Source: Acidobacteriota bacterium (GTDB taxonomy: Bacteria; Acidobacteriota; UBA6911; RPQK01; JAJDTT01). From it: DNA of 64,000 nucleotides. Below the pieces are notes generated by a model. The model had not been told where the DNA came from. It searched no databases and saw only the letters and a list, made by a program, of their open reading frames with translations. A program made the position numbers and the translations under genes. Location: the NCBI GenBank assembly GCA_965203535.1, contig OZ241897.1, positions 3,179-67,178 of the forward strand, written 5' to 3'. Of this stretch, positions 12,848-64,000 are shown one piece after another (position 1 is the first letter of the stretch; each line of letters begins with the position of its first letter).

Positions 12848-12851
<4 letters not shown>
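10251..12851 (-). CDS. Membrane-anchored sulfatase-like (alkaline-phosphatase superfamily / LTA-synthase-like) enzyme
   Basis: 866 aa. N-terminal multi-TM region. Sulfatase-type motif VVVSDHGASFRPG. Large extracytoplasmic domain. Start overlaps the recQ stop by 4 nt. Confidence 0.7.
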
Positions 12852-15217
<2,366 letters not shown>

Positions 15218-35514: not shown

Positions 35515-35623
35515 CGGTCCAGAGGTCGGCAACAATCGCTTTTCCAGATCGTATAACTCTCCTTTTTTCAATCCCTTGAATCGATTCCACCTGATTTTTC
35601 CGGAACCTCCACAACCATAACGC

Positions 35624-35941: not shown

Positions 35942-35966
35942 CAGGAGGGTAGAAAGGGAGTGATCA

Positions 35967-36281: not shown

Positions 36282-36308
36282 CCCGTATTCCTCACTAAGG
36301 GGCGCGAC

Positions 36309-37148: not shown

Positions 37149-37210
37149 CCTGTCAATCCAAATGACGACAGCGGTTTCAATCCTGTGTCCAATCAGCCAA
37201 GGAAAGAACA

Positions 37211-39246: not shown

Positions 39247-39453
39247 CGACTGGCCGGACCGTAACATATCGTCTTGTGCTCATATTGACGCAAACGCGCG
39301 GTGGGATCGACGAAATCCCCTTCTCGCGCACTTCTGGAAATCAGTCTGGACCGATTCGCTGAATCGGATCAACTGGATACATTGATGCATCAGTTTGAAC
39401 GCTGGCGGTCGACAATAATTGTGACCACGGGAATCTGGTTTTTATGCGGTCGG

Positions 39454-45018: not shown

Positions 45019-45174
45019 GGTCTCGCTCCCCTTCCGTAACGAGGCTCGCCGGATCATCCTATCAAGTCCAAACCCTTCAAAGTCAGTGATCGGCCTTTGA
45101 GATGGCTCTATGGCGGCAACCGACGTTATATGGATTATGACCGCGACGTTTCAGCGTATCGGGACTAATCGAAC

Positions 45175-45855
45175 ATGAAGCCGCATTACCATGGACATCG
45201 TGAACGCCTCCGCGAGCGTTTCCGCCGAAGCGGATTCGCCGGATTCGCGGAGCACGAGGTCATCGAGTTGATTTTGACCCTGGCCATTCCCCGCTCTGAC
45301 ATGAAGAAGCCAGCCAAGGCGCTGCTCCGACGCTTCGGCGGTCTGCGCGGCATTCTGGACGCGTCACTGTCAGAATTGCAGGCCGTCAAAGGCATTGGCG
45401 AGATTGCCGCGACCGCCCTGCACATCATCCGCGAGTCGGCCACGCTCTACTTGCAGGAAGTCTCCGAGACGGAGGAAGCGCTTCACGACTCGGAGCGGCT
45501 CAGCGACTTCTGGCGCATGCGGATCGGCGCGCTCAAGCACGAAGTGTTCGCCGTAGCGTACCTGGATTCGGGGTACCGGCTGCTCCGCAACGGCGTCGAA
45601 GTCCTCCAAGAGGGTACGATCGACCGCGCGGCCGTGTATCCTCGGCGGGTGGTGGAGGCTGCGCTCAAGCGCCAAGCAGCAGCAATCGTGCTCGCCCACA
45701 ACCATCCGAACGGCAACGTCGACCCGAGCGAGCACGACAAGATTGTCACAAGGGCCATCGTGCTGGCTGCCGAGACCATCCGGCTCCGGGTCGTCGACCA
45801 CTTGATCGTATCCCCAAAGGAGACCTTCAGCTTCAGGAAAGCGGGACTATTATGA
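45175..45855 (+). CDS. radC: RadC-like JAB-domain protein
   Basis: N-terminal HhH region (LSELQAVKGIGEIAA). C-terminal JAMM-type motif IVLAHNHPNGNVDPSEHD. Confidence 0.8.
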   Translation: MKPHYHGHRERLRERFRRSGFAGFAEHEVIELILTLAIPRSDMKKPAKALLRRFGGLRGILDASLSELQAVKGIGEIAATALHIIRESATLYLQEVSETEEALHDSERLSDFWRMRIGALKHEVFAVAYLDSGYRLLRNGVEVLQEGTIDRAAVYPRRVVEAALKRQAAAIVLAHNHPNGNVDPSEHDKIVTRAIVLAAETIRLRVVDHLIVSPKETFSFRKAGLL

Positions 45856-48722: not shown

Positions 48723-48743
48723 TTATCGTTCGATCCGATCAGA

Positions 48744-50183
48744 TTGATTCACATGGCGAAAATCACACCTGCAGACCTCGAAATCCTTATTCAGCAGGGC
48801 GAGGGCACGACCCTTGAATTCAAGGAGAGGCTCTCGTCGTCGCTGGCGAGGGAAGTCGTGGCACAGGCGAACACTATTGGAGGGAAGATCCTACTGGGAG
48901 TGCGCGATGACGGAGTCGTGACGGGGATTCAGGACTCCAATGCTCTACGCGCCCGCATTCAGGACATCGCCCGAAACTGCGATCCTCCGGTGAACGTGCT
49001 GGCACAGCCGGTAGGTGAGATATTCGTGGTTCAGGTTCGCGAAAGCGACGCCAAGCCCGTGCAATGCAGCGATGGGTTCTTCTGGCGCCAGGGTGCAGTG
49101 ACCCAGAAGCTCAGCCGTGACGAAATCCGCGACTTCTTCCGGGTCGAGGGCGTGATTCGTTTCGATCTCTCCCCCTGCCCCCGCTTCCGGTATCCCGAGG
49201 ATTTCGACCGCGAGAAGTTCGAGGCTTGGCTCGGCTACTCCGGCATCACCGGCCGGCTGCCCGTGGAAGACGTGCTGGTCAACATCGAGGCGGCCGAACA
49301 GGCGGGCGGGAAACTGCTCTTCCGAAACGCCGGTGTGCTCTTTTTCGCCCAAAACGTCCGTCATTTCTTCCCGGAGGCGTACATCACCTGCCTGCTGGCA
49401 AGAGGGCCGGACAAGGTCCACATCCTGGACCGAAAGGACTTCGACGGCGGAATCGTGGCAGACGTCGAGGACGCCCTGCGTTTCGTCGAGCGCAATACGC
49501 GAACCGCCTATCGGATCGATGGGTTGCGGCGACAGAACGTCCCCGAGTATCCGATGAGGGCGGTACGGGAGGCGATCACCAATGCGGTCATGCACCGCGA
49601 CTGGTTCTTCGAAGGCGCCAACGTCTTCGTCGAGATCTACACCGACCGAATCGAGGTGAGCAGCCCCGGCCGGCTCCCCAAGGGCTTGACCCTGGCCGAA
49701 CTCGGGCGCAGGAGTATCCGTCGCAACGCACTGGTCGCGGACCTGCTCCATCGCATCGACTTCATCGAGAAGGCAGGCACCGGCATCCGCCGCATCCGGG
49801 ACGAGGCGAGAGAGTTGGACTGCCCGGAACCGGAATTCGAGGCCGACAGCTTCGTGACCGTCACCTTTCGTCCGAACCCGACGGTCCGTACGGTGTCTGA
49901 GGATGATCAGGCCACCGGGAAAGTCACCCCCCAAGTCACCCCCCAAGTCACCCCCCAAGTTCGACTGTTGAAGGCGATGTCCGGTGAAATGACCCGACAA
50001 CGCCTACAGGAACGGCTTGATCTGAGGGATAGTCAACATTTCCGCAAGGCGTATCTGGTCCCTGCCCTGCAAGCTGGATGGATCGAAATGACGATCCCGG
50101 ACAAGCCGCGCAGCAGCAAGCAGCGCTACCGCCTGACGCCGGCGGGACTCGGATATTTGAAGAGAACCACAGAGGCACGTTAA
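48744..50183 (+). CDS. AlbA_2 (Schlafen-like) + HATPase_c_4 (RecG C-terminal-like) domain putative DNA-binding protein
   Basis: N-terminus EGTTLEFKERL...ANTIGGKILLGVRDDG is typical of AlbA_2 / divergent-AAA proteins. C-terminal wHTH region. Contains an in-frame 12-nt x3 tandem repeat (TPQV)x3. Confidence 0.65.
   Translation: MIHMAKITPADLEILIQQGEGTTLEFKERLSSSLAREVVAQANTIGGKILLGVRDDGVVTGIQDSNALRARIQDIARNCDPPVNVLAQPVGEIFVVQVRESDAKPVQCSDGFFWRQGAVTQKLSRDEIRDFFRVEGVIRFDLSPCPRFRYPEDFDREKFEAWLGYSGITGRLPVEDVLVNIEAAEQAGGKLLFRNAGVLFFAQNVRHFFPEAYITCLLARGPDKVHILDRKDFDGGIVADVEDALRFVERNTRTAYRIDGLRRQNVPEYPMRAVREAITNAVMHRDWFFEGANVFVEIYTDRIEVSSPGRLPKGLTLAELGRRSIRRNALVADLLHRIDFIEKAGTGIRRIRDEARELDCPEPEFEADSFVTVTFRPNPTVRTVSEDDQATGKVTPQVTPQVTPQVRLLKAMSGEMTRQRLQERLDLRDSQHFRKAYLVPALQAGWIEMTIPDKPRSSKQRYRLTPAGLGYLKRTTEAR
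49923..49958 (+). repeat. 12-bp tandem repeat (gtcaccccccaa) x3 inside a CDS
   Basis: Seen directly. Encodes VTPQVTPQVTPQ. In-frame, with length-variation potential. Confidence 0.85.
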
Positions 50184-51392
50184 ATGGCGAAGATCGACAT
50201 CACCAAGACCCTGAAGAAAGACAAGAAGGGCTGGTACTATGTCCGTGGTAATCGTGATTCCAGCGGCAACGTAACGGGGAAATGGTTCCGGACGTACGTT
50301 GACCCGAACGAAATCCGAAAGGGTAAGTTCGCTGCCGACGTATGGGCAGATATCAAGTCCTATCGAGCGCAAGGCAAACAAGCTACGGGGTTCCCGACAC
50401 AAAAACCGGAGAAACTTCTTAAGCGCGTCGTCGGTGCGTTTTCCAAACCCGGTGACCTCGTTGCTGATTTCTTCTGTGGCTCCGGCACTACTCTCGCCAT
50501 AGCCGAGAAACTCGGCCGTCGCTGGATCGGTTGCGACCTTGGCCGTTGGGGTATCCATGTCACCCGCAAGCGGTTGCTCGGAATCGAGAACTGCAAACCC
50601 TTCGAACTCCTCAACCTCGGCAAGTACGAACGCCAGTATTGGCAGGGCTTGACCTTCGGTGGTAACGAGGACAGGAAAATAACGGAACAGGCAGTCTACG
50701 AGTACTTCGCGTTTATCCTCAAGCTCTACCGGGCCGAGCCGTTAACCGGTTCGATGCACCTCCATGGAAAGCGCGGCAGGGCCATGGTTCACATCGGCGC
50801 GGTGGACGCGCCGGTCACCATCGATGAGATCAATCGCGCTCTGAATGAATGCACTGAACTGAAGCAAAGCGAGCTTCACGTGCTGGGGTGGGACTGGGAA
50901 ATGGGTTTGGGCGGACCCAACAATGACGTGCGCAAAGGTGGCCTTATGCACGAATCCGCCAAAGCCCGAGGCATAAAGCTAATACTGCTTCAGATCCCTC
51001 GCGAGGTGATGGAACAGCAGGCGACTGACAAGGGTGACGTGCGTTTCTTTGAGTTGGCATATCTGGCGACTTCCATCAAAAAGCCGAAGAGTCTCACGGC
51101 AGAGGTGGCACTCAACGATTTCGTCATCCCCAACGCTGAACTCATCCCCGAAGAAGTGCGAAGCAAGGTCAGGAAGTGGTCAGACTACATCGACTACTGG
51201 GCCGTGGATTGGGACTTTCGGAACGATTCCTTCATGCAGGGTTGGGTCGCATACCGTACCCGCAAAGATCGTACGCTTCCTCTCGTCTCCGACCCACACA
51301 CTTACGAGCAACCCGGCAAGTACCAAGTGCTCGTGAAGGTGATCGACATCTTCGGCAACGATACGTCCCAGGCATACAACGTCGAGGTGTGA
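50184..51392 (+). CDS. DNA methyltransferase fragment: beta-class N6A/N4C MTase C-terminal (motif X-I) region plus C-terminal extension. Probable N-terminally truncated Type III Mod-like gene.
   Basis: GFPTQKPEKLLKRVV...GDLVADFFCGSGTTLAIAEKLGRRWIGCD is the conserved C-terminal block of PF01555-type MTases. No (D/N/S)PP(Y/F) catalytic motif anywhere in the 402 aa. Starts immediately after the stop of the upstream gene, in the same frame. Confidence 0.55.
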   Translation: MAKIDITKTLKKDKKGWYYVRGNRDSSGNVTGKWFRTYVDPNEIRKGKFAADVWADIKSYRAQGKQATGFPTQKPEKLLKRVVGAFSKPGDLVADFFCGSGTTLAIAEKLGRRWIGCDLGRWGIHVTRKRLLGIENCKPFELLNLGKYERQYWQGLTFGGNEDRKITEQAVYEYFAFILKLYRAEPLTGSMHLHGKRGRAMVHIGAVDAPVTIDEINRALNECTELKQSELHVLGWDWEMGLGGPNNDVRKGGLMHESAKARGIKLILLQIPREVMEQQATDKGDVRFFELAYLATSIKKPKSLTAEVALNDFVIPNAELIPEEVRSKVRKWSDYIDYWAVDWDFRNDSFMQGWVAYRTRKDRTLPLVSDPHTYEQPGKYQVLVKVIDIFGNDTSQAYNVEV

Positions 51393-51396
51393 ACCC

Positions 51397-51732
51397 ATGT
51401 TGACTCTCCATCCCGAAGAACAGAGTTGGCTGGATAGGTACCGGAAGGCTCTTGAAGAGAGACACCCCGGCGCGGTGCTGCGCATGGTCATATACGGCTC
51501 CAAGGCACGCGGAGATGCGCACGAAGACAGCGATATGGACGTGCTCATCATCGTCCGGAACGAATCGAACGGCCTCAAGCGTCCGCTACGACGAATCGGT
51601 TACGATCTGGCTGCGACCTCTTGGGCCGTACCCTCGATCATGGCTTACACGCAGGCCGAGTGGGAACGTCTGAAAACACTTCAGTCAACCTACAGAGAAG
51701 CGGTCGAACGCGACGGGGTCTCCGTCCTGTGA
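51397..51732 (+). CDS. Minimal nucleotidyltransferase (MNT) antitoxin-type protein
   Basis: GS...D motif LRMVIYGSKARGDAHEDSDMDVLII. 111 aa. Confidence 0.8.
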   Translation: MLTLHPEEQSWLDRYRKALEERHPGAVLRMVIYGSKARGDAHEDSDMDVLIIVRNESNGLKRPLRRIGYDLAATSWAVPSIMAYTQAEWERLKTLQSTYREAVERDGVSVL

Positions 51733-52154
51733 ACCGAGAGTCGTCCATTGGAGAATGGCGGCGCGCAGTACAGGCGCTCGCCTCGGCCAAGCTCCTGATG
51801 CAGTCCGATTATCGAGAAGATTCCGTGTCCCGCTCCTATTATGCGATGCTTCACGCTGCAAAATCTGCTCTGTTCGTACACGATATCGCCACATCGAGTC
51901 ATACCGCAGTGAGGAGCATGTTCGGCCTTCATCTTGTACGCACCGGTGAAATCGAACGAGAATGGGCAAGGGATCTTGCCGAAGGCTCGGATGATCGACT
52001 GATGGCGGACTACAGTTTTCATACTCGCTTCTCCCGCGAAGAGACTCAGCGGGAGTATGAGCGAGCGAAAGCGTTTCTCGAACGGATACGCAAATACTTG
52101 ACCGAGCACGGATTGACCGGACAGGAACTCGATTCGGAGCACGGCAATGGCTGA
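51729..52154 (+). CDS. HEPN-domain protein (toxin partner of MNT)
   Basis: GTG start overlapping the MNT stop (GTGA). HEPN Rx4-6H-like region. 141 aa. Confidence 0.7.
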   Translation: MNRESSIGEWRRAVQALASAKLLMQSDYREDSVSRSYYAMLHAAKSALFVHDIATSSHTAVRSMFGLHLVRTGEIEREWARDLAEGSDDRLMADYSFHTRFSREETQREYERAKAFLERIRKYLTEHGLTGQELDSEHGNG

Positions 52155-54999
52155 GTCAGTCATTTCATACGACAAAGACCTGCCCGAGATTTCGGGTCGG
52201 ATTCCGTGGGAAAGGCCAGACTCCTTTTTGGTGAAGGACGACCGGGCGCCGAACGGCTGGCGTGAAGATACGTCCGAGCGCCGGCCCAGTCGGCTCCTGC
52301 TCGTACCGAAGATCCGCAATGCGGTGGACGCGTGGCGCGACGGCGGCTACCCGGGCGCTTCCGACGTGACGCGGAGGCTGTTCGAGTACTGGTTTGAGGA
52401 AGACCACGACGTACCCGGCTTCGACGCCCCGTTTCACTACTATTTCTGCCAGCGGGAGGCTGTCGAGACGCTGGCATGGCTGGTGGAGGTCGCACGTGAG
52501 CGAGACGCCAAGGCCCTCATAGAGACCTACGGCACCATCTTCAGGAAAGACCTGCTTTCGAAGAACATCGAGTTCCAGACCACGATGGACGGCCGGCGAC
52601 AGGTCCGCCGGTACGTGGAGGAGCTAACATCAACAGGAGTGCAGGATCTGCCGCCCAAGGACCTGCGCCGCTTCGCCTTCAAGATGGCCACCGGCTCCGG
52701 GAAGACCTGGGTCATGGCAATGGCCGTCGTCTGGGCCCGGTTCCACAAGCAGCGCGTGCCCGGCTCGGACCTCTCCACGAACTTCCTGATCGTGGCGCCC
52801 AACGTGATCGTGTATCAGCGACTGGCGAAGGACTTTGCGGACAACCGGATATTCCACAAGCTGCCCTTGATCCCACCTGAATGGAAGGGCAGTTTCTCGC
52901 AGAAGGTAATCCTGCGGGGGGACTCCGCCGAGCCCGATCCCTCCGGGAATCTGTTCCTCACCAACATCCACCAACTCTACGAATCCCGCGACAAGGAGTG
53001 GACCGCGGGAAGCGCTGTGGAAGCCCTGCTGGGCAAGCCGCCAGCACAGAACCTGAGTGCTTCCAGCCAGCGATCCATGTTGGAGCGAGTCAAGTCGCTC
53101 CAAGACCTCATGGTGATGAATGACGAAGCCCATCACGTCCACAACGAAGACTTGGCTTGGCACCAATCGCTGGCCGCCATCCAAGAAGCGTTGCCGCAGG
53201 GCCTCGGAGCATGGCTCGATTTCTCGGCCACGCCCAAAGACCAGAACGGCATGTACTTCCCATGGACGATCTGTGACTATCCGCTGGCACAGGCCGTGGA
53301 GGACCGGATCGTCAAGGCGCCTATCATCGTCACCAAGGAGGACGATCCGAAACGACCGACTGGCGACCCTCGCCATGTCATCAAACGGAATGTGGTCGAG
53401 AAATACGGCTACTGGCTGCGCGCCGCCGTCCAGCGCTGGAAGGAGCACCAGAAAGTCTACAGGAAGCTCGGCACCAAGTCCGTGCTGTTCATCATGGCGG
53501 AAAAGAATGTCTACGCGGACGCGCTGGGCGAGCACTTGTGGAAGACCAAAGAGTTCGGTTTCAAGAAGTCAGAAGTGCTCGTCATCCACACCGACAACAC
53601 CGGGGAAGTCAGAAAGGGAGACTTGGAGAAGGCCCGCCAAGCGGCCAGGGACATCGACAAGGCTGAGAGCAAAATCAAGGCCATCGTCAGCGTGATGATG
53701 CTGCGCGAGGGTTGGGACGTTCGCAACGTGACGGTCGTCCTGGGACTCCGGCCGTTCACCGCCAAGGCCGAGATCCTACCGGAGCAGGTGATCGGCCGCG
53801 GTTTGCGCCTGATGAAACACGTGGGCCCGGATCGCACCCAGACGCTGGAGGTGCTGGGTACCCACAAGCTGCTCGACGTGCTGCGGACCCAACTCGAAGC
53901 CGAAGGTGTTGGTGTCGCAAGCACGAAGGCCGATCCGCCGCAGCCAATCCATATCGAGCCGGTGAAGGAACGACTGAAGTACGATATCACCGTTCCCCTC
54001 ACTCGACCCAGCTTGAGACGCGATCTACGCAAACTGTCGGACTTGGATGTGCAGACGCTTGAACCGATATTCGAACAAGAAGAACTCGATGAGCGATTCC
54101 GCGTCAGCCTGATGCTGGAGTTCGTCACAACGGAAACCGAAGTTCACCAGGCTGACATTGCCGTTGGTCTGCTTCCCGTTCAGGAACTCCTGTCCGATAT
54201 TGCCAATATGGTGATTGACAGAACGGGTTTGACCACCCGCTTCGCAGAGCTGTATCCGATGATACGCGACTACGTCGAGCACCGTTGTTTTGGTCGAGAG
54301 ATTAAACTGGATGATGAAGCAACTCGCTCCCATTTGGGGCGGATCGAGGTCAAGGAAGGCATCGCCAAATACATGGCCCGGAAGATTGCACTGCTCACAG
54401 TCGAACGCCGCAACCTTGAATTCGACAAACGGGATTTCCGTATGTCCGATACGAAACCCTTCCTCTGGAGACGCAACCTGCTGCCGCAGCCCTTGGAAGA
54501 GAAGAAAACCGTTTTCAACTTCGTGGCCACCTACAATGACTTCGAGCGCAACTTCGCCAAATTTCTGGGCCGGGCCGACGACGTTCTGCGCTTCGCGGCA
54601 CTCGGGACGACGGAACAGGGGCGCTCCGGAACCACGTTTCGAGTCGACTATCTGAAGCCGAGTGGAGCCATCGGATTTTACCATCCCGATTGGGTGGTGG
54701 TTCAGGAGCTCTTGGATGAACAGGTGAACTGGATCATCGAAACAAAGGGTCGCGTTTGGGAGGGCACCGAGGAGAAGGATGCGGCAATGAAGAGCTGGTG
54801 CCGGCGCATCAGCGCGATGACGGGTGAGACTTGGAAGTATCTGAGAGTGAACCAGAACGAGTTCAGACCTGAGCTGCCGACGCTTCGGGCGCTGGTCGTG
54901 GAAATCGTAGGACACGCCATGCGGGCGGAACGCAGCCAGCACGGACTGAAGATGACCCGCGAGGAAGTTCGGGAAGCCCGCGACGAGGGCCGTCGGTGA
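52147..54999 (+). CDS. res: Type III restriction enzyme Res subunit (SF2 DEAH helicase-nuclease)
   Basis: Walker A KMATGSGKTWVMAMAVVW. DEAH box VMNDEAHHV. Helicase C-terminal motifs (VIGRGLRL). 950 aa. Confidence 0.8.
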   Translation: MAESVISYDKDLPEISGRIPWERPDSFLVKDDRAPNGWREDTSERRPSRLLLVPKIRNAVDAWRDGGYPGASDVTRRLFEYWFEEDHDVPGFDAPFHYYFCQREAVETLAWLVEVARERDAKALIETYGTIFRKDLLSKNIEFQTTMDGRRQVRRYVEELTSTGVQDLPPKDLRRFAFKMATGSGKTWVMAMAVVWARFHKQRVPGSDLSTNFLIVAPNVIVYQRLAKDFADNRIFHKLPLIPPEWKGSFSQKVILRGDSAEPDPSGNLFLTNIHQLYESRDKEWTAGSAVEALLGKPPAQNLSASSQRSMLERVKSLQDLMVMNDEAHHVHNEDLAWHQSLAAIQEALPQGLGAWLDFSATPKDQNGMYFPWTICDYPLAQAVEDRIVKAPIIVTKEDDPKRPTGDPRHVIKRNVVEKYGYWLRAAVQRWKEHQKVYRKLGTKSVLFIMAEKNVYADALGEHLWKTKEFGFKKSEVLVIHTDNTGEVRKGDLEKARQAARDIDKAESKIKAIVSVMMLREGWDVRNVTVVLGLRPFTAKAEILPEQVIGRGLRLMKHVGPDRTQTLEVLGTHKLLDVLRTQLEAEGVGVASTKADPPQPIHIEPVKERLKYDITVPLTRPSLRRDLRKLSDLDVQTLEPIFEQEELDERFRVSLMLEFVTTETEVHQADIAVGLLPVQELLSDIANMVIDRTGLTTRFAELYPMIRDYVEHRCFGREIKLDDEATRSHLGRIEVKEGIAKYMARKIALLTVERRNLEFDKRDFRMSDTKPFLWRRNLLPQPLEEKKTVFNFVATYNDFERNFAKFLGRADDVLRFAALGTTEQGRSGTTFRVDYLKPSGAIGFYHPDWVVVQELLDEQVNWIIETKGRVWEGTEEKDAAMKSWCRRISAMTGETWKYLRVNQNEFRPELPTLRALVVEIVGHAMRAERSQHGLKMTREEVREARDEGRR

Positions 55000-55397
55000 T
55001 GGTCCTCGTCATTGATGCGTCCGTGACGGCGGCGTGGTGTTTTCAGGATGAAATGGGCAGCGTGGAGGCCGATATGCTGATGTCGCGGGTCGCCGACCAG
55101 GGAGGGATCGTGCCGAATCTCTTCTGGCACGAGATGCGCAACATATTGATTGTCGCGGAGCGAAGAGGGCGCATCGAGTCCAAGGCGGCCGAGGTTCACT
55201 TGCAGCGAATTCGCGCACTCCCTCTTGTTGCGGACGACAAGCAGGACGATACGGAGACGCTGGCGCTGTGCCGTCGCTACGGCTTGAGCGGCTATGACGC
55301 TGCATACCTGGAGACCGCAAAACGCCGAGGCACGTCGCTTGGTACGCTTGACAAAAAGCTGGAGAAAGCCGCTAGAAATGAGAACGTCATAGCCTGA
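54996..55397 (+). CDS. PIN-domain protein (VapC-like), no adjacent antitoxin
   Basis: VLVIDASVTAAW...LSGYDAAYLETA pattern of PIN acidic residues. Start overlaps the res stop. Confidence 0.65.
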   Translation: MMVLVIDASVTAAWCFQDEMGSVEADMLMSRVADQGGIVPNLFWHEMRNILIVAERRGRIESKAAEVHLQRIRALPLVADDKQDDTETLALCRRYGLSGYDAAYLETAKRRGTSLGTLDKKLEKAARNENVIA

Positions 55398-56841
55398 TCG
55401 GCAGCCGTGCTCCATCTCCCTTCGCGAAGCAGCTACGCTCAGAGAGGCTGCAATGGAGGCAATCTGGATCGGAGCGTAGTCCGTCGTAGCATATATCGCG
55501 GCGGCGGGGCCGAAAGCGCATATAGTCTCGCGACGCATTATCTGCGGTAAGGCCAGTCATGTAGAACAGGAAATCGTTGGCAGCCTGTGCACTGGCAAGA
55601 GCGTTCAGAGTAATGACACTGGGCGCAATCACGTCTGGGTCATCCACGTAACGTTGCGCTCGCCTCTCTTCGTCGAAAATTGCCTCGTCCTGTAGCTTGG
55701 CGGCGTTTATGAATCCATTGCACTGAAGGCACCCGGACTCAGGGGTGACCAATCGAGTGACCGAATATACCTGTCTCAAGCTGCCAGCAGCATCGCTCAC
55801 GACCTTTGCCCCGATCTGAACACCTGGGATCAGATACTGATGGACGATAGCGTTGAACAATAGGCGCGCCCGCATGGTGTTGGCGGCGAGGAAGACGTAG
55901 TCGCAGTCCGTTAGGTATTTGGGTACTTCCGGCTCAACAAAATCGACTGCAAGAGTCTTCACACGGGCGGTATGGTTGGCACGACGAATGTTGCGTCTGG
56001 CAAGGTCCACCTTACGACGGGCCAATCTCCGGCCAATCGCCCTGATCCATCGTATTGAAGACCGCCTGACGAACTTGGGGGGGATGTCCCAACGGCGTGC
56101 GCCGACCAGCCGAGGCAAGTTCGTGGATTCGGCACGATCAGGATCGACGATCACGAAGTTCCCGACACCCAACCGGGCAGCGTACTCCGCCAGCAACGAA
56201 CCGACGCCGCCGACGCCCACGATCGCCACTTTCGCTGTCCGCAACATCTCTTGGCCGCGATCTCCGAACAGCCGTACTTGACGGTCGTAACGAACGTGCG
56301 CGGGACCAGCGCGGGGCGGCCCGGATGGGGTGAGTAGCTCACGACCTAGACCCACGATCGTCGCATCGGTGAGGGACACACGACTGTTCGCCGACAGCCA
56401 GATGTCGCCAGCGACGGCATCTTCCGCGAACACAAGGGCTCCAACAGGAACGCCCCGGGTGATCTGCAACAGCGATGGATAGCCGCGCTCATGGGAGCGG
56501 AGGTCGACGCGGGAGAAGGCGACATGGCCGGTACCAAAATGATTGTGGATCGCGAGGTAGACCAGGCGTTCGTCGCGCGCCTTCAGGATCCGGTCGGTGA
56601 TGAACTCGCCACGCAGAGTTCGGTGACTGCGTTTGCCCGGAACGAAATCACGACCGTCCTTCGCAAGATGCAGTTCCCTGGCCAGGAGCCGGACGCCGTC
56701 TCCACACTCTGTGATCCCAGCGAGGATGACGGCACCATGTTCGTCTTCATCGCCGGGAAACAGATGACCTTTGAGTTTAGCGTACAAGCCACCTGGGATG
56801 ACCACCCGCCAAGGCTTGTTCAGGGCCGATTGTTGAGCCAT
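55387..56841 (-). CDS. JAB/JAMM metalloprotease domain fused to ThiF/E1-like adenylyltransferase (ubiquitin-activating-like)
   Basis: N-terminus E...LAIHNHFGTGHVAFSRVD (JAMM-like HxH...S..D). C-terminus Rossmann VAIVGVGGVGSLLAEYAARLGVGNFVIVDPDRAESTNLPR (ThiF/MoeB/E1) plus CLQCNG Cys motif. 484 aa. Confidence 0.7.
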   Translation of the reverse strand: MAQQSALNKPWRVVIPGGLYAKLKGHLFPGDEDEHGAVILAGITECGDGVRLLARELHLAKDGRDFVPGKRSHRTLRGEFITDRILKARDERLVYLAIHNHFGTGHVAFSRVDLRSHERGYPSLLQITRGVPVGALVFAEDAVAGDIWLSANSRVSLTDATIVGLGRELLTPSGPPRAGPAHVRYDRQVRLFGDRGQEMLRTAKVAIVGVGGVGSLLAEYAARLGVGNFVIVDPDRAESTNLPRLVGARRWDIPPKFVRRSSIRWIRAIGRRLARRKVDLARRNIRRANHTARVKTLAVDFVEPEVPKYLTDCDYVFLAANTMRARLLFNAIVHQYLIPGVQIGAKVVSDAAGSLRQVYSVTRLVTPESGCLQCNGFINAAKLQDEAIFDEERRAQRYVDDPDVIAPSVITLNALASAQAANDFLFYMTGLTADNASRDYMRFRPRRRDICYDGLRSDPDCLHCSLSERSCFAKGDGARLPIRL

Positions 56842-57227
56842 CGGAGTACCTTCTGCAGCTTGAGTAGGGCAGTGTCCCTTGCCGGATTCCAGTGATTGGA
56901 GCGACGCGACAACTGAATTGCGGGATGTCCTCGGAACGCGCCACTCGTCATGGCCATCCCAAGGGAATCTCCATCTGCGCGACGAAGATCCGGACGGACG
57001 AAGTGCGGATAGACATCAGCAAACGGGTACTGGTAGGTGATGTTGAAACCCACCCAAGTTTCACCCTGCTCGTATATCTTCGCTAGCTGTACATCTTGGA
57101 CAACCACGTACGCGCCACCATTTCCGCATGGATCCGCCTTGACCCGTGCCGTCGGGAAGCCTGCGACAATCTCGTCTATGGCTTTGCGGACTGCTGGCGT
57201 CACGTTTTGGACGTCAGGAGTCATCAT
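56820..57227 (-). CDS. Small protein upstream of, and overlapping, the JAB-E1 gene; putative E2/UBC-like (or UEV-like) component
   Basis: 135 aa. Position and size fit the E2 partner of prokaryotic E1/JAB operons. YPHFVRPD resembles the HPN region. Only one Cys (ADPCGNGG), so the catalytic assignment is uncertain. Confidence 0.35.
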   Translation of the reverse strand: MMTPDVQNVTPAVRKAIDEIVAGFPTARVKADPCGNGGAYVVVQDVQLAKIYEQGETWVGFNITYQYPFADVYPHFVRPDLRRADGDSLGMAMTSGAFRGHPAIQLSRRSNHWNPARDTALLKLQKVLRWLNNRP

Positions 57228-57263
57228 CGTCCGGCACCGCGACGATGCAAATGCCGGGCTCGA

Positions 57264-58500
57264 CTTCGACTAGTACGCCATATCGTGTAATTGGCCGTAT
57301 ATTATTGCAAGGGAGGCTGAGAACTCGGAAGGAGGAGTTCTCATGGCACCACGCTATCGTGTCACGCTCACAGCGGAAGAACGGGATGAATTGACAGCCT
57401 TGACCCGGGCCGCGACCAAGACCACCGGCAAGCGGTTCCTGTACGCGCGGGCGCTGTTGTTGTGCGACCGCGGGCCGGAAGGGCCGGGATGGACGGTGGC
57501 CCGGGTGGCCGAGGCGCTGGGCGTCTCGGCCCGCACCCTCGAGCGCTTGAAACGGCGGTTTGTGGAGCAGGGGTTGGAGTTCGCCCTGGAGCGCAAGCGG
57601 CGGGTGCGGCCGCCGCGGGAGGCCATCTTCGACGGCGCGATGGAGGCTCGCTTGATCGCCTTGGCCTGTTCCCCGGCCCCGCCGGGGCGCAAGCGCTGGA
57701 CGCTGCGTCTGCTGGCGGAGAAAGTGGTGGAATTGGGCTGGGTCGAGCGGGTCTCGGTGATGACGGTGCAGCGGACGCTAAAAAAAACAAACTTCAGCCT
57801 CATCGGAAGAAGTATTGGCGGATCCCACCGCGGGGCAACGCCGCCTTCGTAGCCCGCATGGAAGACGTTTTGGACGTCTATGCCCGGCCCTACGATCCCC
57901 GTCGACCGGTGGTCTGCATGGACGAGACCAACAAGCAGTTGATCGGCGAAGTGCGGGAGCCGCTGCCCGTCAAGCCCGGCCAGCCGGAGCGGGTCGAGCA
58001 CGAGTACGTGCGCAACGGGGTCGCGCAGATCTTCCTGGAAGTGGAGCCATTGACCGGTCGGAGCCATGTGGAGGCGGCCGAACGGCGCACGCGCCAGGAT
58101 TGGGCCCGCTGGATCGAAGGCATGCTGGAGAAGCGATATCCGGAGGCCGAGCGGGTGGTCCTGGTCATGGACAACCTGAACACGCACGGCATCGAATCGC
58201 TGTACGCGACCTACGAGCCCCGGCACGCTCGCGAACTGGCACAACGACTCGAAATCCATTACACGCCGAAGCACGGGAGCTGGCTCAACATTGCGGAAAT
58301 CGAACTGAGTGCGCTGTGCGGACAATGCCTCGACCGCCGGATTCCAAGCTTGGCCCGGATGCAACGGGAGATCGAGGCTTGGGTCGTGGACCGGAATCAA
58401 CGCCGAACCGAGATCAACTGGCAGTTCAAGACGGAGGATGCCCGGATCAAGCTGAAGAGCCTGTATCCGACACTTTAAGTGGTGATAGATACTAGGTCGA
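57264..58500 (+). mobile_element. IS630-family insertion sequence (Tc1/mariner-type DDE transposase, two ORFs with -1 frameshift)
   Basis: orfA 57343..57852 (HTH; LERLKRRFVEQGL). orfB frame to 58478 with DDE motifs (VVCMDETN, VMDNLNTHG, GSWLNIAEIE). The A8 slippery run at 57780-57787 links the frames (-1). Imperfect terminal inverted repeats GACTAGTAcgcCATATC / GACCTAGTAtCTATCA at about 57266 and 58500. Element ends are approximate. Confidence 0.75.
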
Positions 58501-58696
58501 CGATCGGCTCGGTCACGCGCGGTTTGGTCTCGACGCTCAGCACATAGGTCTGTTCGGGGTTCAGCACCCCTTGGTGGACCGCAGCCTGCTGGATGTCGGT
58601 CGCCGGTTGTGGTCCGGCAACCACAGTGACGGGTTGCTCATTGACACGGATCTCACAGATTGTGCCTTGGTTCTCGGTTTGGTGATGATTCATCAC
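58475..58696 (-). CDS. Small beta-grasp (ThiS/MoaD/ubiquitin-like) protein, putative Ubl of the E2/JAB-E1 module. 3' end appears replaced by IS-derived sequence.
   Basis: 73 aa. ICEIRVNEQPVTV..AGP..ATDI..A..QGVLNPEQTYVLSVE resembles ThiS/MoaD-type Ubls. Ends ...DLVSITT with no C-terminal Gly/Gly-Gly. The last codons lie within the inferred right end of the IS630 element. Confidence 0.4.
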   Translation of the reverse strand: MMNHHQTENQGTICEIRVNEQPVTVVAGPQPATDIQQAAVHQGVLNPEQTYVLSVETKPRVTEPIVDLVSITT

Positions 58697-58708
58697 ATAC
58701 CTCCTTAG

Positions 58709-58737
58709 TTGCTAAATCGACGCTCGATTGCTATAGT
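58709..58737 (+). promoter_or_regulatory. Sigma70-type promoter (TTGCTA -17 bp- TATAGT) whose spacer holds a 15-bp palindrome AATCGACGCTCGATT. Putative operator of the HTH repressor.
   Basis: Seen directly: -35 at 58709-58714, perfect inverted repeat at 58714-58728, -10 at 58732-58737. The GTG of the HTH gene lies about 70 nt downstream. Divergent from the Ubl gene. Confidence 0.55.
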
Positions 58738-58809
58738 GCAACCGATGAGACGCATTGTTTCACATGAGGAATTCAATTGCAACAGTGATATTAACTGAGG
58801 AGGGTTGTT

Positions 58810-59148
58810 GTGAGAGGCGAGTTCGACCTTGCGGGTTTCTACGCTGCGCTTGACGCCCAACGGACAGCCAAGGGTTTGAATTGGAAGCAGGTCTCAAAGC
58901 AATCCGGTGTCAGTGCCTCGACTCTGACGAGGATGTCACAAGGACGCCGTCCCGACATCGATGGCCTCGCCCTCCTACTTGCGTGGTCCGGCCTCGATGC
59001 CTCCAACTTTCTTCCCAGCGCTAACAGTCCTGAGCCACTGGCGCAGATCACAGCGCACTTGAGAGCGGATCGAAATTTGAAACCGGAAAGCGCCGAGGCA
59101 CTGGAAGCGATCATCAAGGTCGCCTACGAACGCTTCAAGGACCGATGA
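58810..59148 (+). CDS. XRE-family HTH DNA-binding protein (CapH-like regulator)
   Basis: NWKQVSKQSGVSASTLTRMSQG is an HTH_XRE motif. 112 aa. Immediately followed by an ImmA/IrrE peptidase gene. Confidence 0.7.
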   Translation: MRGEFDLAGFYAALDAQRTAKGLNWKQVSKQSGVSASTLTRMSQGRRPDIDGLALLLAWSGLDASNFLPSANSPEPLAQITAHLRADRNLKPESAEALEAIIKVAYERFKDR

Positions 59149-59152
59149 GATC

Positions 59153-59737
59153 ATGAGCCTCCCCTATGGATTCAAGGCCAAATCCAATCGGATCGCCGTA
59201 GGGCTTCGTCATCAGATGGGGCTACGATCCAGCGACCCGATTGATCTACACGATTTGGCCGAGAACAGGCTTGGACTTCCGGTCGTGCCGATCACGGTGT
59301 TTACCAATGTTTGCCCAGAACACGTCACACGTCTGCTCATGGCCGACAAGGGTGCGTTCTCGGCGTCACTGCTTCAGGTCGGTAACCGCCGGGTCATCCT
59401 TTTGAACGACGGACACAGCCCCCGCCGACAGAATAGCAATCTGGCGCATGAGATTGCGCACGCCCTGCTTGCCCACCCCTCGACTCAACCCTTCGACCAT
59501 ACGGGGTGCCGCAATTTCGACAAAGACATGGAGGATCAGGCCAACTGCCTCGCTGGTCACGTCTTGATCCCCAACGAGGCTGCGCAACAAATCGTCTGGT
59601 CCGGCCGTGACCCCGAAGCAGTTTGTGACGATTACGGCGTCAGCAGACAGATGCTGGAGTACCGCTTGAACACAAGCGGGGCTCGAAAGCGGCGCTCTCG
59701 GTGGCAGCGATCATGGGCAACTCGTACCTCTCTGTAG
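59153..59737 (+). CDS. ImmA/IrrE-family zinc metallopeptidase (CapP-like)
   Basis: HEIAHALLAH (HExxH) motif with downstream conserved residues. 194 aa. Confidence 0.75.
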   Translation: MSLPYGFKAKSNRIAVGLRHQMGLRSSDPIDLHDLAENRLGLPVVPITVFTNVCPEHVTRLLMADKGAFSASLLQVGNRRVILLNDGHSPRRQNSNLAHEIAHALLAHPSTQPFDHTGCRNFDKDMEDQANCLAGHVLIPNEAAQQIVWSGRDPEAVCDDYGVSRQMLEYRLNTSGARKRRSRWQRSWATRTSL

Positions 59738-59876
59738 CGATCTTGACCGGCTCAGACAGCTTGAGTGAGATCAATGGAGCTCGTATAGCCATTCGCATGC
59801 AGTGGTCACGAGCACCGCGTTTGGGGAACTACTGGATTGACTCAATGGCCTTTACCCATCGCTCGTCGGGTGTCCA

Positions 59877-61967
59877 ATGTTGAAAGAACCCGTGGCCTAC
59901 GATGCCCACCGCGCCTTGGAACTGCTGCGATCAGGGACAACGCAAGACAACGCCAAGTTTCGGAAGGGACAGGAAGAGGCGGTTCACCACGTCGTGGAGG
60001 GCCGTGGGCGGCTCCTCGTCGTGCAGAAGACCGGATGGGGCAAGAGCTTCGTCTACTTCATCGCGACAAAGCTGCTGCGCGAGGCTGGGGCTGGACCTGC
60101 GCTTCTCATTTCTCCACTGCTCTCGTTGATGCGGAACCAGATCGCAGCAGCCGAGCGGATGGGGATCTGCGCGACCAGAATCACGTCGGACAACTGGGAA
60201 CGCTGGGCCGACGAGGAAGCCCGACTACGGCGCGACGAGGTGGATATCCTGCTCATTTCTCCCGAGCGGCTTCGCAACGAGCGCTTTCTCAGCGAAGTAT
60301 TGGCACCGGTTGCCGGGCGCATCAGCTTGCTGGTCATCGACGAAGCCCACTGCATCTCAGATTGGGGACACGATTTCAGGCCTGACTACCGTCGGATCGA
60401 GCGAATCGTCCGCACTCTTCCGGCGAACCTCAGACTGCTCGCGACGACCGCGACGGCAAACAACCGGGTGATGGAAGATCTTCGGAAGGTGCTCGGCCCT
60501 GACCTGGAGGTGTTCCGTGGTGATCTCAATCGTCCCTCGCTCATGCTCCAGACGATTCGACAACCCAGCCAGTCGGAACGGTTGGCATGGCTTGCGGAAC
60601 GGATTCCTGCACTTCCCGGTCACGGCATCATCTACACGCTCACCGTCCGCGACGCGGTTCATGTGGCGGAGTGGCTGCAGTCGCGAGGACTCGCTGTGGA
60701 ATCCTATACTGGAAGAACGGGAGACCGCCGCGAAGAACTCGAATGCGCATTGCTTGAGAACCAGGTCAAGGCTCTGGTGGCCACGACCGCTCTCGGCATG
60801 GGCTTCGACAAGCCGGATCTCGCCTTCGTCATTCATTACCAGACCCCAGGCTCGGTTGTCGCCTACTATCAGCAGGTGGGGCGGGCCGGTCGCGCACTTG
60901 ATGCTGCCTATGGCGTTTTGTTAAGCGGCGAGGAAGACACCGACATCACGGACTACTTCATCGCCAGCGCGTTTCCGACCCGTGACGAAGTTCAGCAGGT
61001 GATCGCGGCGATCGAGGGCGCACCAGCAGGTCTCTCAGTGCCACAGCTTATGGAAAACGTCAATCTCAGTCAGGGCCGCATCATGAAAACGATTGCGTTA
61101 CTCTCGCTCGAGTCGCCCGCGCCCATCGCGAAACAGGGGACCCGATGGCAACTGACCGCCGCGAGCTTGAGCAGGAAATTCTGGGAGCGGGCAGAGCGTC
61201 TGACTGGGCTACGGCGCGAAGAACAGCGCCAGATGCAAAAATACGTGAGACTCGATTCCGGGCACATGGAGTTCCTCATCAAAGCACTGGACGGGGATTC
61301 GGGAACCATTCGGCCACCGAATCTCCCGCCGCTGCCCACGAAAGTCGATTCCGCGCTGGTAAAGGAAGCAGTGGCCTTCCTACGCCGTACCAGCTTGCCG
61401 ATCGAACCACGCAAACGATGGCCACTACTGGGTGGTCTTCCACTGTACGACGTGCGAGGAGCGATCTCTGCCGAACATCAAGCGGAGCCCGGAAAGGCGC
61501 TCTGCATCTGGGGAGATGCCGGGTGGGGCGAACACGTTCGTCGCGGCAAGTACCACGATGATCGATTCTCAGACGACCTCGTTCGTGCCTGTGTTGAACT
61601 GATTGCGAAATGGAATCCGCAGCCACCTCCGAAGTGGGTCACCTGTATACCGTCAATGAAACGTCCCAACCTCGTCCCGGATTTCGCCCGACGCTTGGCG
61701 GCAGAGATAGGCCTGCCATTACGTCGGGCGCTGGTAAAGGTGGAGGACCGCCCGGAACAAAAAACCATGGCCAACAGCACCCAACAGGCACGAAACGTGG
61801 ATGGTTCGATCGACGTCCTTTTGGAAAAGGTACTCGACGGATCGGTGCTGCTGGTGGACGACATGGTGGATTCACGGTGGACGCTGACGGTCGCCGCGTG
61901 GTTGCTACGATCCAACGGCAGCGGAGCGGTGTGTCCGCTTGCTCTTGCACTTGCGAGCCGAAGATGA
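59877..61967 (+). CDS. RecQ-family SF2 helicase fused to a C-terminal ComFC-like phosphoribosyltransferase (PRTase) domain
   Basis: RecQ motifs (LVVQKTGWGKSFVY, LVIDEAHCISDWGHDFRPDY, TATANNRV, YYQQVGRAGR). C-terminal 150 aa has ComF/PRTase-type blocks (RPEQKTM..STQQARNVDGSIDV and VLLVDDMVDSRWTL). 696 aa. Confidence 0.75.
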   Translation: MLKEPVAYDAHRALELLRSGTTQDNAKFRKGQEEAVHHVVEGRGRLLVVQKTGWGKSFVYFIATKLLREAGAGPALLISPLLSLMRNQIAAAERMGICATRITSDNWERWADEEARLRRDEVDILLISPERLRNERFLSEVLAPVAGRISLLVIDEAHCISDWGHDFRPDYRRIERIVRTLPANLRLLATTATANNRVMEDLRKVLGPDLEVFRGDLNRPSLMLQTIRQPSQSERLAWLAERIPALPGHGIIYTLTVRDAVHVAEWLQSRGLAVESYTGRTGDRREELECALLENQVKALVATTALGMGFDKPDLAFVIHYQTPGSVVAYYQQVGRAGRALDAAYGVLLSGEEDTDITDYFIASAFPTRDEVQQVIAAIEGAPAGLSVPQLMENVNLSQGRIMKTIALLSLESPAPIAKQGTRWQLTAASLSRKFWERAERLTGLRREEQRQMQKYVRLDSGHMEFLIKALDGDSGTIRPPNLPPLPTKVDSALVKEAVAFLRRTSLPIEPRKRWPLLGGLPLYDVRGAISAEHQAEPGKALCIWGDAGWGEHVRRGKYHDDRFSDDLVRACVELIAKWNPQPPPKWVTCIPSMKRPNLVPDFARRLAAEIGLPLRRALVKVEDRPEQKTMANSTQQARNVDGSIDVLLEKVLDGSVLLVDDMVDSRWTLTVAAWLLRSNGSGAVCPLALALASRR

Positions 61968-63388
61968 TGAACGTCGAGCTATCGGCCAACACGAAGGCGA
62001 TCCTGCTGCTGACCGCGCCGTTGATTGTCGGTCGAGGCAAGTCCCCAGCCGCCCCCCTCAGTCCCGGAGAATACCGCCTGTTTGCACGTCGTCTCCGGAA
62101 CCTGCAGCGTCAACCCGCGGATCTATTGGATCCCGGAACACGCAATGTCTGGAAGGAATGCGGAACCAAGCTGGACTCCGCGAGGCTGGAGCGGCTACTC
62201 AAGCGGGGCTTTCTCCTCAGTCAAGCGATTGACCGCTGGCGGACACGCGCGATTTGGGTAATGAGCCGAGCTGATGCCGGCTACCCCAATCGGTTGAAAA
62301 CACGCCTTCGAGACCGCGCGCCCGCTGTGCTTTACGGATGCGGTGACGCCTCGATCCTGGATACTGGCGGCTTAGCTGTCGTCGGTTCCAGGAACGTGGA
62401 CGCCACGCTGCTTAAATACACTGAAGACGTGGGTCGTCTCGCCGCGACATCGACGCGCACTCTGGTATCGGGAGGCGCCCGTGGCGTCGATCAGGCCGCG
62501 ATGCGCGGGGCCTTGAAATCGGACGGCCGAGCCGTAGCCATTCTGGCCAACGGCCTCGCAAGCGCAGTGATGCGCCGGGATCATCGGGAAGCACTGATCG
62601 ACAGGCGGTTGGTTCTGGTCTCTCCCTACGATCCCGCGGCTCGCTTCCACGTCGGACACGCCATGCAACGGAACAAACTGATCTATGCGCTGTCGGACAC
62701 GGCGCTTGTCGTGAACTCGGATTACAAAAAAGGAGGCACTTGGACTGGTGCGGTCGAGCAACTCGGCAAGTTGAAACTCGTGCCTGTTTTTGTCCGTACT
62801 AGCAATGAGCCAAACAAGGGCCTCGACGGACTGCGGGAGCGGGGCGCGGAGGCATGGCCGGAGCCAAAAACCCCAGAGGCTTTCACAAAGATTCTGGATG
62901 CGTCGCCAGACATGAAACACGGAGTTCCGAAACAGCAGTTACTTTCGACGGCCAGCCGCAGCGGTTCGGCGCAACTGGAAGATACTCAGCAGACGGTCCC
63001 AACGGGGTCGAGAATCCCATCTGAGCACGATGTTGCGGCGGATTCCACTCTCGCCACTGAACTGTCTGCCAAGGTCAGGGAGTTGATCAAGCGAATTAGT
63101 GGACCCAAGAAAGTGGCTAACGTCGCCGACGCACTTGAAATTCAGAAAGGGCAAGCCATCGTTTGGCTGAGAAGTTTTGTCGAAGCGGAAGTCACCGAAC
63201 TGTTCAGGTGCTCAAGTGCGAACAGAACCGAAGGAAGCATCGCTAAAGCCCTTCACGTCCCCGAGCACCAAGTTCGTGTATGTCTGAAACGCATGGTCGA
63301 AGAGGGTAAGGTCGAAAAGCTCTCTGGCCGCCCAGCCAAATATCGCTCCAGGGGTTCATCCGGGCCTCTCTACGATCAGCAGGATTGA
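61964..63388 (+). CDS. DprA/Smf-like (SLOG superfamily Rossmann) domain protein with C-terminal winged-helix region
   Basis: ATG overlaps the upstream stop (ATGATGA). LAVVGSRNVD...LVSGGARGVDQAAMRGAL...ALSDTALVV matches the DprA Rossmann core. The C-terminal 150 aa contain a wHTH-like segment. Confidence 0.75.
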   Translation: MMNVELSANTKAILLLTAPLIVGRGKSPAAPLSPGEYRLFARRLRNLQRQPADLLDPGTRNVWKECGTKLDSARLERLLKRGFLLSQAIDRWRTRAIWVMSRADAGYPNRLKTRLRDRAPAVLYGCGDASILDTGGLAVVGSRNVDATLLKYTEDVGRLAATSTRTLVSGGARGVDQAAMRGALKSDGRAVAILANGLASAVMRRDHREALIDRRLVLVSPYDPAARFHVGHAMQRNKLIYALSDTALVVNSDYKKGGTWTGAVEQLGKLKLVPVFVRTSNEPNKGLDGLRERGAEAWPEPKTPEAFTKILDASPDMKHGVPKQQLLSTASRSGSAQLEDTQQTVPTGSRIPSEHDVAADSTLATELSAKVRELIKRISGPKKVANVADALEIQKGQAIVWLRSFVEAEVTELFRCSSANRTEGSIAKALHVPEHQVRVCLKRMVEEGKVEKLSGRPAKYRSRGSSGPLYDQQD

Positions 63389-63497
63389 CGGCGCCTCAAT
63401 GGTGTTGCCCGAAGTAGCAACGCCTGCGCTGCCGCAGCCCGCGCCGCGCCGTCCTCCAAGACTGCACGTAGTAGCCCACGCGTTTCGACAGTAATTC

Positions 63498-63797
63498 TCA
63501 CGCCTGGTCTGCCCACCCCGAAGCGGCAACTCGGTTAATCTCTTCGACGGAAAGAAATGGCGTTCCCGGCCTTGTAAGCATCCCGAAAACGGACGCCGCC
63601 GAGATTCCACGCCTCGGCCTCAGCCGTATCCGGCCACCCGTCAGCAGATCGACATCGAGTTTGTCGCCCGGACGAACTCCGAGATGATTGACGACTTCAT
63701 TGCACAGGGTGATCTGTCCCTTGGCGGTCACTTCAAGTGTAATGTTCATGGCTCCAACTTCATCGAACTCGATCCACAAAGTAGTGCTATCGTTCAT
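63498..63797 (-). CDS. Small AbrB/SpoVT-like (swapped-hairpin) DNA-binding protein, possible antitoxin
   Basis: ITLCNEVVNHLGVRPGDKLDV resembles the MazE/AbrB/PrlF fold. About 80-99 aa. No partner toxin recognised within the window. Confidence 0.35.
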   Translation of the reverse strand: MNDSTTLWIEFDEVGAMNITLEVTAKGQITLCNEVVNHLGVRPGDKLDVDLLTGGRIRLRPRRGISAASVFGMLTRPGTPFLSVEEINRVAASGWADQA

Positions 63798-64000
63798 TCA
63801 ATCGAGCGAACAAGTGTTAAGAGGAACAGACGCGATCTTTTCAGTCGATTGACTGTAACTCCCCTGGGCGCTGGCATGCTATCGACAGGACGACTGCTCC
63901 AAGAGTGAGCGGTTTCTTCGGCCTGAGTACACTTTCCCTTTTTTAATGATCCTTCTGTTTTTAAAGTCATTAATCAATGCTGCATCCCTCGTGTATAAGA

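Follow-up and report, generated by a model that had tools for sequence, protein, structure and literature searches.

An intact PsyrTA (RqlHI) toxin-antitoxin pair next to a CapH/CapP-like regulator in an Acidobacteriota defence island

A stretch of 64,000 nucleotides from an Acidobacteriota bacterium (assembly GCA_965203535.1, contig OZ241897.1, positions 3,179 to 67,178 of the forward strand), referred to here as the window, contains two overlapping genes near its end, psyrT (rqlH) and psyrA (rqlI). The first encodes a helicase fused to a phosphoribosyltransferase (PRTase)-like domain, the second a DprA-like protein (Table 1). An initial annotation, made from the letters without database searches, described them as a candidate novel system. 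Comparison with profile libraries and other genomes indicates that the gene pair is an intact copy of PsyrTA/RqlHI, a known and widespread toxin-antitoxin (TA) pair of phage defence.

PsyrT comprises an N-terminal RecQ-like core, a linker and the PRTase-like domain. The RecQ-type core, already read from the sequence in the initial annotation, is matched by the Pfam families DEAD (2.3e-23), Helicase_C (6e-13) and ResIII, by NCBIfam recQ_fam above the cut-off of that model (8.9e-69), and by solved RecQ cores in the PDB at 1e-50, with the alignment confined to residues 11-345. In an alignment of 24 diverse PsyrT homologues (A2), the Walker A motif TGWGKS (K56), the DEAH box (155-158), QQVGRAGR and the C-terminal motif VLLVDDMVDSRWT are invariant or nearly so. 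The helicase motifs I (GKS), II (DEAH) and VI expected of PsyrTA are all present. No Pfam or NCBIfam model matched residues 362-541, and an exact-sequence look-up of the protein returned no identical record. As stated initially, the gene is distinct from the housekeeping recQ of the window, whose product has RQC and HRDC domains and a zinc module.

The C-terminal domain was searched as a profile built from the last 200 residues of 24 homologues (alignment A3). Against all PDB sequences, 58 matches were obtained at E ≤ 10, nearly all of them PRTase-fold enzymes, including phosphoribosyl pyrophosphate (PRPP) synthetase (best 1.5e-5), HGPRT and PurF. The alignment falls at the PRPP-binding loop. 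Pfam Pribosyltran matches the window protein below threshold (residues 603-681, E 3.8e-4) and 17 of the 24 homologous C-termini, at best with 6.4e-9. Within VLLVDDMVDSRWT, residues D661, D662, D665, S666 and W668 are invariant in the 24 homologues, so that the acidic PRPP-loop motif of the family (DIVD663 in RqlH) is found fused to the helicase. The domain alone matches the PADLOC model of PsyrT at 3.4e-64 and that of ShosT at 0.0019, the latter at the PRPP loop. The comF model TIGR00201 reaches E=0.01 and 15.8 bits against a cut-off of 233, and PRPP synthetases match as well. Because the profiles match PRTase folds, and comF no better than PRPP synthetases, a PRTase-like domain is confirmed by profile comparison, and "ComFC-like" is an analogy only. 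From the ComF/PRTase assignment made initially, the PRTase part stood and the ComF-specific part proved weak.

PsyrA is encoded directly downstream on the same strand and combines a DprA-like SLOG domain with a C-terminal winged helix-turn-helix (wHTH), the arrangement of the PsyrTA antitoxin. Its Pfam matches are DNA_processg_A (1e-36) and SLOG cluster4 (LDcluster4, 1.9e-7), in agreement with the initial domain reading; the match to a TrmB-type wHTH at residues 421-462 is weak (E 1.7e-4, below cut-off). DprA and ShosA from the PDB match at about 1e-9 (ShosA 4.6e-9). With the dprA model TIGR00732 the score is 99 bits, short of the cut-off of 191. At the junction GAAGATGATGAAC, the psyrT stop codon TGA (61965-61967) and the psyrA start codon ATG (61964-61966) overlap in different frames, as noted before, and translational coupling via this ATGA overlap is plausible. 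A mechanically predicted start of the second open reading frame (ORF) at 61610 was rejected as an artefact. The 474-residue form is backed by a PADLOC alignment from residue 2 and by contig L081, 99% identical, in which the gene is called with the same length. Since the ORFs, the junction and the family matches all agree, the earlier observation is correct in every structural detail; its interpretation is partly supported.

Table 1. Features of the window, with the psyrTA pair first (positions are those of the window)
Feature	Position	Strand	Description and basis
psyrT / rqlH	59877..61967	+	696-aa (amino acid) toxin, RecQ-like superfamily 2 helicase with C-terminal PRTase-like domain; PADLOC PsyrT, E. 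coli alignment
RecQ-like helicase core, aa 26-345	59952..60911	+	Pfam DEAD and Helicase_C, NCBIfam recQ_fam, PDB RecQ cores
Walker A TGWGKS	60030..60047	+	K56 = RqlH K49
DEAH, aa 155-158	60339..60350	+	D155 = RqlH D148
RqlH-specific linker region, aa 346-496	60912..61364	+	without tetracysteine zinc-binding module in the clade of the window
PRTase-like (ComF-like) toxin domain, aa 497-696	61365..61964	+	profile against PDB, Pfam, PADLOC
PRPP-loop-like motif VLLVDDMVDSRWT, aa 657-669	61845..61883	+	D662 = RqlH D663
ATGA start/stop overlap psyrT-psyrA	61964..61967	+	sequence read directly
psyrA / rqlI	61964..63388	+	474-aa antitoxin, DprA-like SLOG/Rossmann and C-terminal wHTH; PADLOC, Pfam, PDB
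SLOG/Rossmann domain of psyrA	about 62240..62851	+
C-terminal wHTH of psyrA	about 63221..63346	+
MazE/AbrB-type antitoxin-like gene	63498..63797	-	directly downstream of psyrA; also in L081
HTH gene (CapH-like, 112 aa)	58810..59148	+	PADLOC capH weak, 0.0022
M78 peptidase with HEIAH (CapP-like)	59153..59737	+	PADLOC capP 1.1e-10
Operator-like palindrome ATTGCTATAGTGCAAC	58727-58742		divergent HTH/Ubl intergenic region
Small Ubl (ubiquitin-like)/Multi_ubiq-like gene	58696..58475	-
Prok-E2_E	56820..57227	-	divergent from HTH-M78
ThiF E1	55387..56841	-	divergent from HTH-M78; N-terminus of about 180 aa without Pfam assignment
PIN	54996..55397		overlaps preceding gene
ResIII/BPTD_3080-type restriction endonuclease, 950 aa	52147..54999		overlaps HEPN and PIN
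HEPN	51621..52154		overlaps next gene
N6_N4 methyltransferase	50184..51392		match covers only C-terminal part of model
Schlafen/AlbA_2-HATPase_c_4-Fic-like_C protein	48744..50183
UvrD helicase fused to PD-(D/E)XK nuclease	45852..48722
RadC	45175..45855
Two ORFs without Pfam match	37211..38314, 38314..39246
D12 adenine methyltransferase	36309..37148
Canonical recQ	12848..15217	-	RQC, HRDC, RecQ_Zn_bind, HTH_40

The PADLOC models of PsyrTA cover both proteins end to end. PsyrT (E=9.1e-271) is aligned from residue 10 to 694 with model positions 5-685 of 689, PsyrA (E=1.2e-129) from residue 2 to 462 with positions 1-396 of 398. BLASTP comparison yielded 48% identity to the E. coli RqlH-type RecQ-family helicase over the whole toxin and 33% to its DprA-like partner over the whole antitoxin. 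Residues K49 and D148 of RqlH correspond to K56 and D155, and its DIVD motif to D662-D665; the catalytic residues mutated in published work are kept in the window copy. P. syringae psyrTA, E. coli F11 rqlHI and M. smegmatis RqlH share with it the two-gene order, the tight coupling and the succession of RecQ-like core, linker, PRTase-like domain and DprA-like SLOG protein with C-terminal HTH. In the window PsyrA, the linker before the wHTH is about 60 residues longer than in the PADLOC model. The RecQ-like core also resembles DpdF, the helicase of the Dpd 7-deazaguanine DNA-modification/restriction cluster (PADLOC 1.6e-86, NCBIfam DpdF 2.1e-47). Membership was ruled out by a score of 162 bits against the NCBIfam cut-off of 550, a far higher match to the PsyrT model and the lack of a Dpd context; among seven window proteins scanned with PADLOC, Dpd models other than DpdF gave only a weak DpdJ helicase-motif match.

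The family was described in several steps. M. smegmatis RqlH joins a RecQ-like ATPase to a tetracysteine zinc module and a C-terminal domain that is ComF/PRTase-like. It is a single-stranded DNA (ssDNA)-dependent ATPase and a 3'-5' helicase, and neither activity survives the mutation K49A or D148A (Ordonez, Unciuleac and Shuman, 2012; PMC3378886). In E. coli F11, RqlH becomes genotoxic when the DprA-like/HTH protein RqlI, encoded downstream, is missing. Toxicity requires the PRTase domain and the PRPP-loop aspartate D663 (D662 here), as seen with a D663A mutant and a domain deletion, and helicase-dead mutants are worse. The helicase activity likewise holds the toxin in check. For RqlI to co-precipitate with RqlH, the PRTase domain must be present, and RqlI neutralizes the toxin by binding this domain; the HTH of RqlI is dispensable (Russell and Mulvey, 2015; PMC4670107). 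SOS induction, filamentation and mutagenesis are the toxicity phenotypes in homologues. A preprint listed PsyrTA (the same pair as RqlHI; Sberro, 2013) among phage-protective TA systems and described its antitoxin as DprA-like and its toxin as a PRTase (Millman et al., 2022). Publication of the architecture (2012) was thus followed by that of the TA behaviour (2015) and of the defence role (2022), and PADLOC holds an entry for the pair. The initial claims of novelty and of a system "predicted only by comparative genomics" do not survive this record of experiments, and the locus is an ordinary one because PsyrTA/RqlHI already stands in the standard defence catalogues. The alternative offered in the same annotation, a PRTase/SLOG conflict system, is right.

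PsyrT is abundant. At least 8000 homologues came out of a protein search. Of these, the 120 best have about 690 residues each and 74-80% identity to the window protein, save one relative of 99% identity (P0001), which led to contig L081. When one genome was scanned for each species, at least 598 relatives appeared, and 80 loci were kept. These come from Nitrospirota, Acidobacteriota, Chloroflexota, Verrucomicrobiota, Cyanobacteria, Actinomycetota, Bacillota, Bacteroidota and Pseudomonadota. With tblastn, 73 of the 80 showed a PsyrA homologue directly downstream with tight spacing. Among the seven others, three are clearly cut off by the end of the contig, one offers too short a downstream stretch, and in three the partner is truly absent or divergent. 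The patchy distribution across phyla at 60-80% identity points to horizontal transfer of PsyrTA. With the homologous Providencia pair as DNA query, 1678 of 5426 complete E. coli genomes (about 31%) gave a match, and at least 80% of the query was covered in only 55 of these genomes. Six listed E. coli matches are annotated as "RecQ family ATP-dependent DNA helicase" and "DNA-processing protein DprA". In E. coli strain 2/0 (L091, NZ_CP023853.1 4728954-4732471), a type I restriction-modification operon carries PsyrTA between its hsdS and hsdR genes. In a Cyclobacteriaceae metagenome-assembled genome (L076, 6001-8094), the PsyrT homologue has an in-frame stop, which may reflect a pseudogene, a sequencing error or recoding.

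The family divides by its zinc module. Where classical RqlH has its C...CGxCxxC cluster, the window protein shows in A2 a stretch free of cysteine and an alignment gap of four residues; only sequences that share about 50% identity with the window protein carry the cluster. A regular-expression survey of 79 loci found the four cysteines in 45, all of 45-54% identity. The other 34 are Cys-free and 50-99% identical, all above 61% except L066 (50%), and take in M. colombiense and Conchiformibius. All 120 close database homologues are Cys-free as well. The tetracysteine module belongs to the 2012 description of RqlH and is present in the M. smegmatis and E. coli proteins, whereas the window clade has lost it; the PADLOC definition does without it. 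Conservation of the Cys-free clade across phyla is unusually high, mostly at 61-80% identity. Because the Cys-free loci, like the tetracysteine ones, retain the PsyrA partner together with the PRTase motif, the loss is treated as a sub-clade difference inside the PsyrTA family.

A mechanism can be proposed by combining the gene arrangement with the work on homologues and on ShosTA (PMC11961720, PMC12961424). ShosTA, a sister system, likewise pairs a DprA-like antitoxin (PADLOC ShosA matches the window PsyrA at 1.6e-24) with a PRTase-type toxin and is also a TA-type phage defence; ShosT differs in having no helicase. The overlapping codons would lead to co-translation, so that the antitoxin is made together with the toxin. 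During phage infection, PsyrA may be titrated by ssDNA or recombination intermediates or lost after host shut-off, both by analogy with what is reported for ShosTA. The freed PRTase domain would then use PRPP and perturb nucleotide or DNA metabolism. Phage and host replication would both be blocked, in a manner resembling abortive infection.

Upstream of psyrT lie an HTH gene and an M78 (ImmA-type) peptidase gene, and divergent from them genes for a ubiquitin-like protein (Ubl), an E2 and a ThiF-type E1. More distant M78 homologues (54-81% identity) were found in six loci. All six carry a 112-113-residue HTH gene with the M78 gene, divergent beside a Ubl/Multi_ubiq gene, an E2-sized gene of 124-136 residues, fused to Ubl in L085, and a ThiF E1; in none of them does PsyrTA follow HTH-M78. 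In the divergent intergenic region, the palindrome ATTGCTATAGTGCAAC and TTGCA repeats are common to all seven loci compared, and in the window the motif does not recur in the gap upstream of psyrT. The arrangement of HTH-M78 followed by PsyrTA occurs only in L081 and L087, relatives of 98-100% identity. With the window HTH and M78 proteins as queries, tblastn found neither in any of the 80 PsyrT loci. Pfam analysis of 121 ORFs upstream of PsyrT in 68 of these loci gave no family common to more than two, and neither Peptidase_M78 nor a recurrent HTH family was among the 25 of 58 families listed. Because these upstream families are not recurrent, PsyrTA is taken to land in heterogeneous contexts. 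A metagenome scan with the M78 protein returned a single short locus (L082). Many bacterial ubiquitination-like operons are associated with CapH and CapP (PMC11601603). The gene neighbourhoods indicate that the HTH/M78 pair, which is CapH/CapP-like, regulates the divergent Ubl-E2-E1 operon beside it.

The Ubl-E2-E1 // HTH-M78 cassette is also seen in L083-L089. It resembles Bil/Bub-type bacterial ubiquitination operons, and no DUF6527 gene was seen. A JAB domain in the E1 N-terminus was suspected from an HxH...SxxD motif read by eye and dropped, as residues 1-185 gave no Pfam match even at E ≤ 1. An IS630-family insertion element occupies 57274..58490 (HTH_32 ORF from 57343, DDE_3 ORF to 58478), inserted at the dinucleotide TA within CTAG. 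It swaps the last 17 residues of the Ubl-like protein for "SITT"; the intact 85-residue form is found at L081 8560-8817. Because the element replaces the Ubl C-terminus, the operon is probably disabled or uncoupled in this strain.

The surroundings are, judged from gene content and strain comparison, a strain-variable defence island, as the initial annotation had it. Between L081 and the window, a block at 55256..63765 is shared, with the gene order E1-E2-Ubl // HTH-M78-PsyrT-PsyrA-MazE-like. About 10 kb at 45110..55255 are missing from L081, with RadC, UvrD-nuclease, Schlafen-like, methyltransferase, HEPN, restriction endonuclease and PIN genes; so are about 4 kb at 35508..39451 with a D12 methyltransferase and two ORFs of no assigned family. 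The latter insertion has a low GC content (49-58%) and may be an orphan or novel restriction-modification-like module. ResIII and PIN genes recur beside E1 in L084, L086 and L087, the HEPN gene only in L087 at the locus edge. The homology to L081 stops at 63765, inside the MazE/AbrB-type gene region. No tRNA genes were found at the island borders, and the neighbours examined included no com, pil or comEC gene.

The best explanation for the whole, with a probability of about 0.9, is an intact PsyrTA (RqlHI) TA and anti-phage module, with the HTH/M78 pair belonging to the neighbouring Ubl-E2-E1 operon and no dedicated switch for PsyrTA. The placement "under an HTH/ImmA switch" claimed initially would require that PsyrTA has been captured by the CapH/CapP-like pair, the four genes forming one DNA-damage-inducible unit by read-through from the HTH promoter. 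All four do lie on one strand, with 139 bp from the M78 stop to the psyrT start. This gap shows no terminator-like or promoter-like site, and the sole sigma-70-like site in 58400..64000 is upstream of the HTH gene, although both kinds of scan, tuned to the E. coli consensus, perform no better than chance. The order is kept in L081 and L087, yet its restriction to such close relatives, the Ubl-E2-E1 company of the pair in all six more distant loci, its absence from the 80 PsyrT loci and the lack of the operator-like palindrome before psyrT make the capture improbable. A TA module, moreover, normally needs a constitutive antitoxin supply. Read-through into psyrTA, if it occurs, would be a lineage-specific accident of juxtaposition. 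Similarly doubtful is the proposal that Cys-free PsyrT represents a distinct sub-type, a helicase or sensor without the RecQ zinc module that in this lineage may be DNA-damage-inducible by read-through from the CapH/CapP-like promoter. If true, a TA-type effector would be coupled to an ssDNA-sensing protease switch.

A role in housekeeping repair or recombination, with RqlH as an alternative RecQ and a DprA-like RecA loader and no conflict system, could draw on the loading of RecA by DprA-family proteins and on the binding of RecA by ShosA. It is very unlikely, as a complete canonical RecQ, RQC and HRDC included, is already encoded in the window, the PsyrTA pair sits in a variable island amid restriction-modification, TA and Ubl genes, its distribution speaks for horizontal transfer, and RqlH is toxic without RqlI in a pair scored as a defence system. 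Still less credit can be given to the condensed competence module for ssDNA uptake, in which ComFA, ComFC and DprA functions would handle transforming DNA from two genes. The combination of helicase, PRTase-like module and DprA-fold protein, all acting on ssDNA, does recall competence, an analogy raised in both earlier papers (PMC3378886, PMC4670107), and the resemblance is one of domains only (ComF E=0.01, DprA 1e-36). The helicase, however, is of RecQ type and not of ComFA type, the marginal ComF similarity does not exceed that to PRPP synthetase, and the comF and dprA cut-offs are not reached. The neighbours are defence and mobile genes rather than a com operon. E. coli strains with RqlHI also have a canonical dprA (PMC4670107), and the reported phenotypes are toxicity and phage defence.

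Several points weigh against PsyrTA as a phage-defence module of the proposed kind. One native-host study with an E. coli PsyrTA recorded no detectable protection against its phage panel, so PsyrTA does not defend in every case. For the window pair, both the trigger and the chemistry of the PRTase domain are extrapolated from ShosTA; ShosT is only weakly similar to the PRTase domain of PsyrT (E 0.0019), and ShosA is reported to neutralize ShosT without direct binding, via ssDNA, RecA and repair, unlike RqlI, whose binding partner is RqlH's PRTase domain. The zinc module of M. smegmatis RqlH is lacking here. Because a truncation that removed this module rendered the M. smegmatis protein insoluble (PMC3378886), helicase competence of the Cys-free clade is only assumed. 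An AlphaFold2 (AF2) model of PsyrT was poor (mean predicted local distance difference test 56.5, predicted template modelling score 0.41, with input homologues 74-80% identical) and adds no structural support.

The pair carries little weight as a discovery, having been catalogued already. The locus illustrates that a regulator adjoining a defence module need not belong to it: the HTH/ImmA pair goes with the Ubl-E2-E1 cassette. According to a 2025 preprint, ShosT alone has been characterized among the defence PRTases. The highly conserved Cys-free clade could supply convenient proteins for work on the PRTase chemistry and the trigger of PsyrT.

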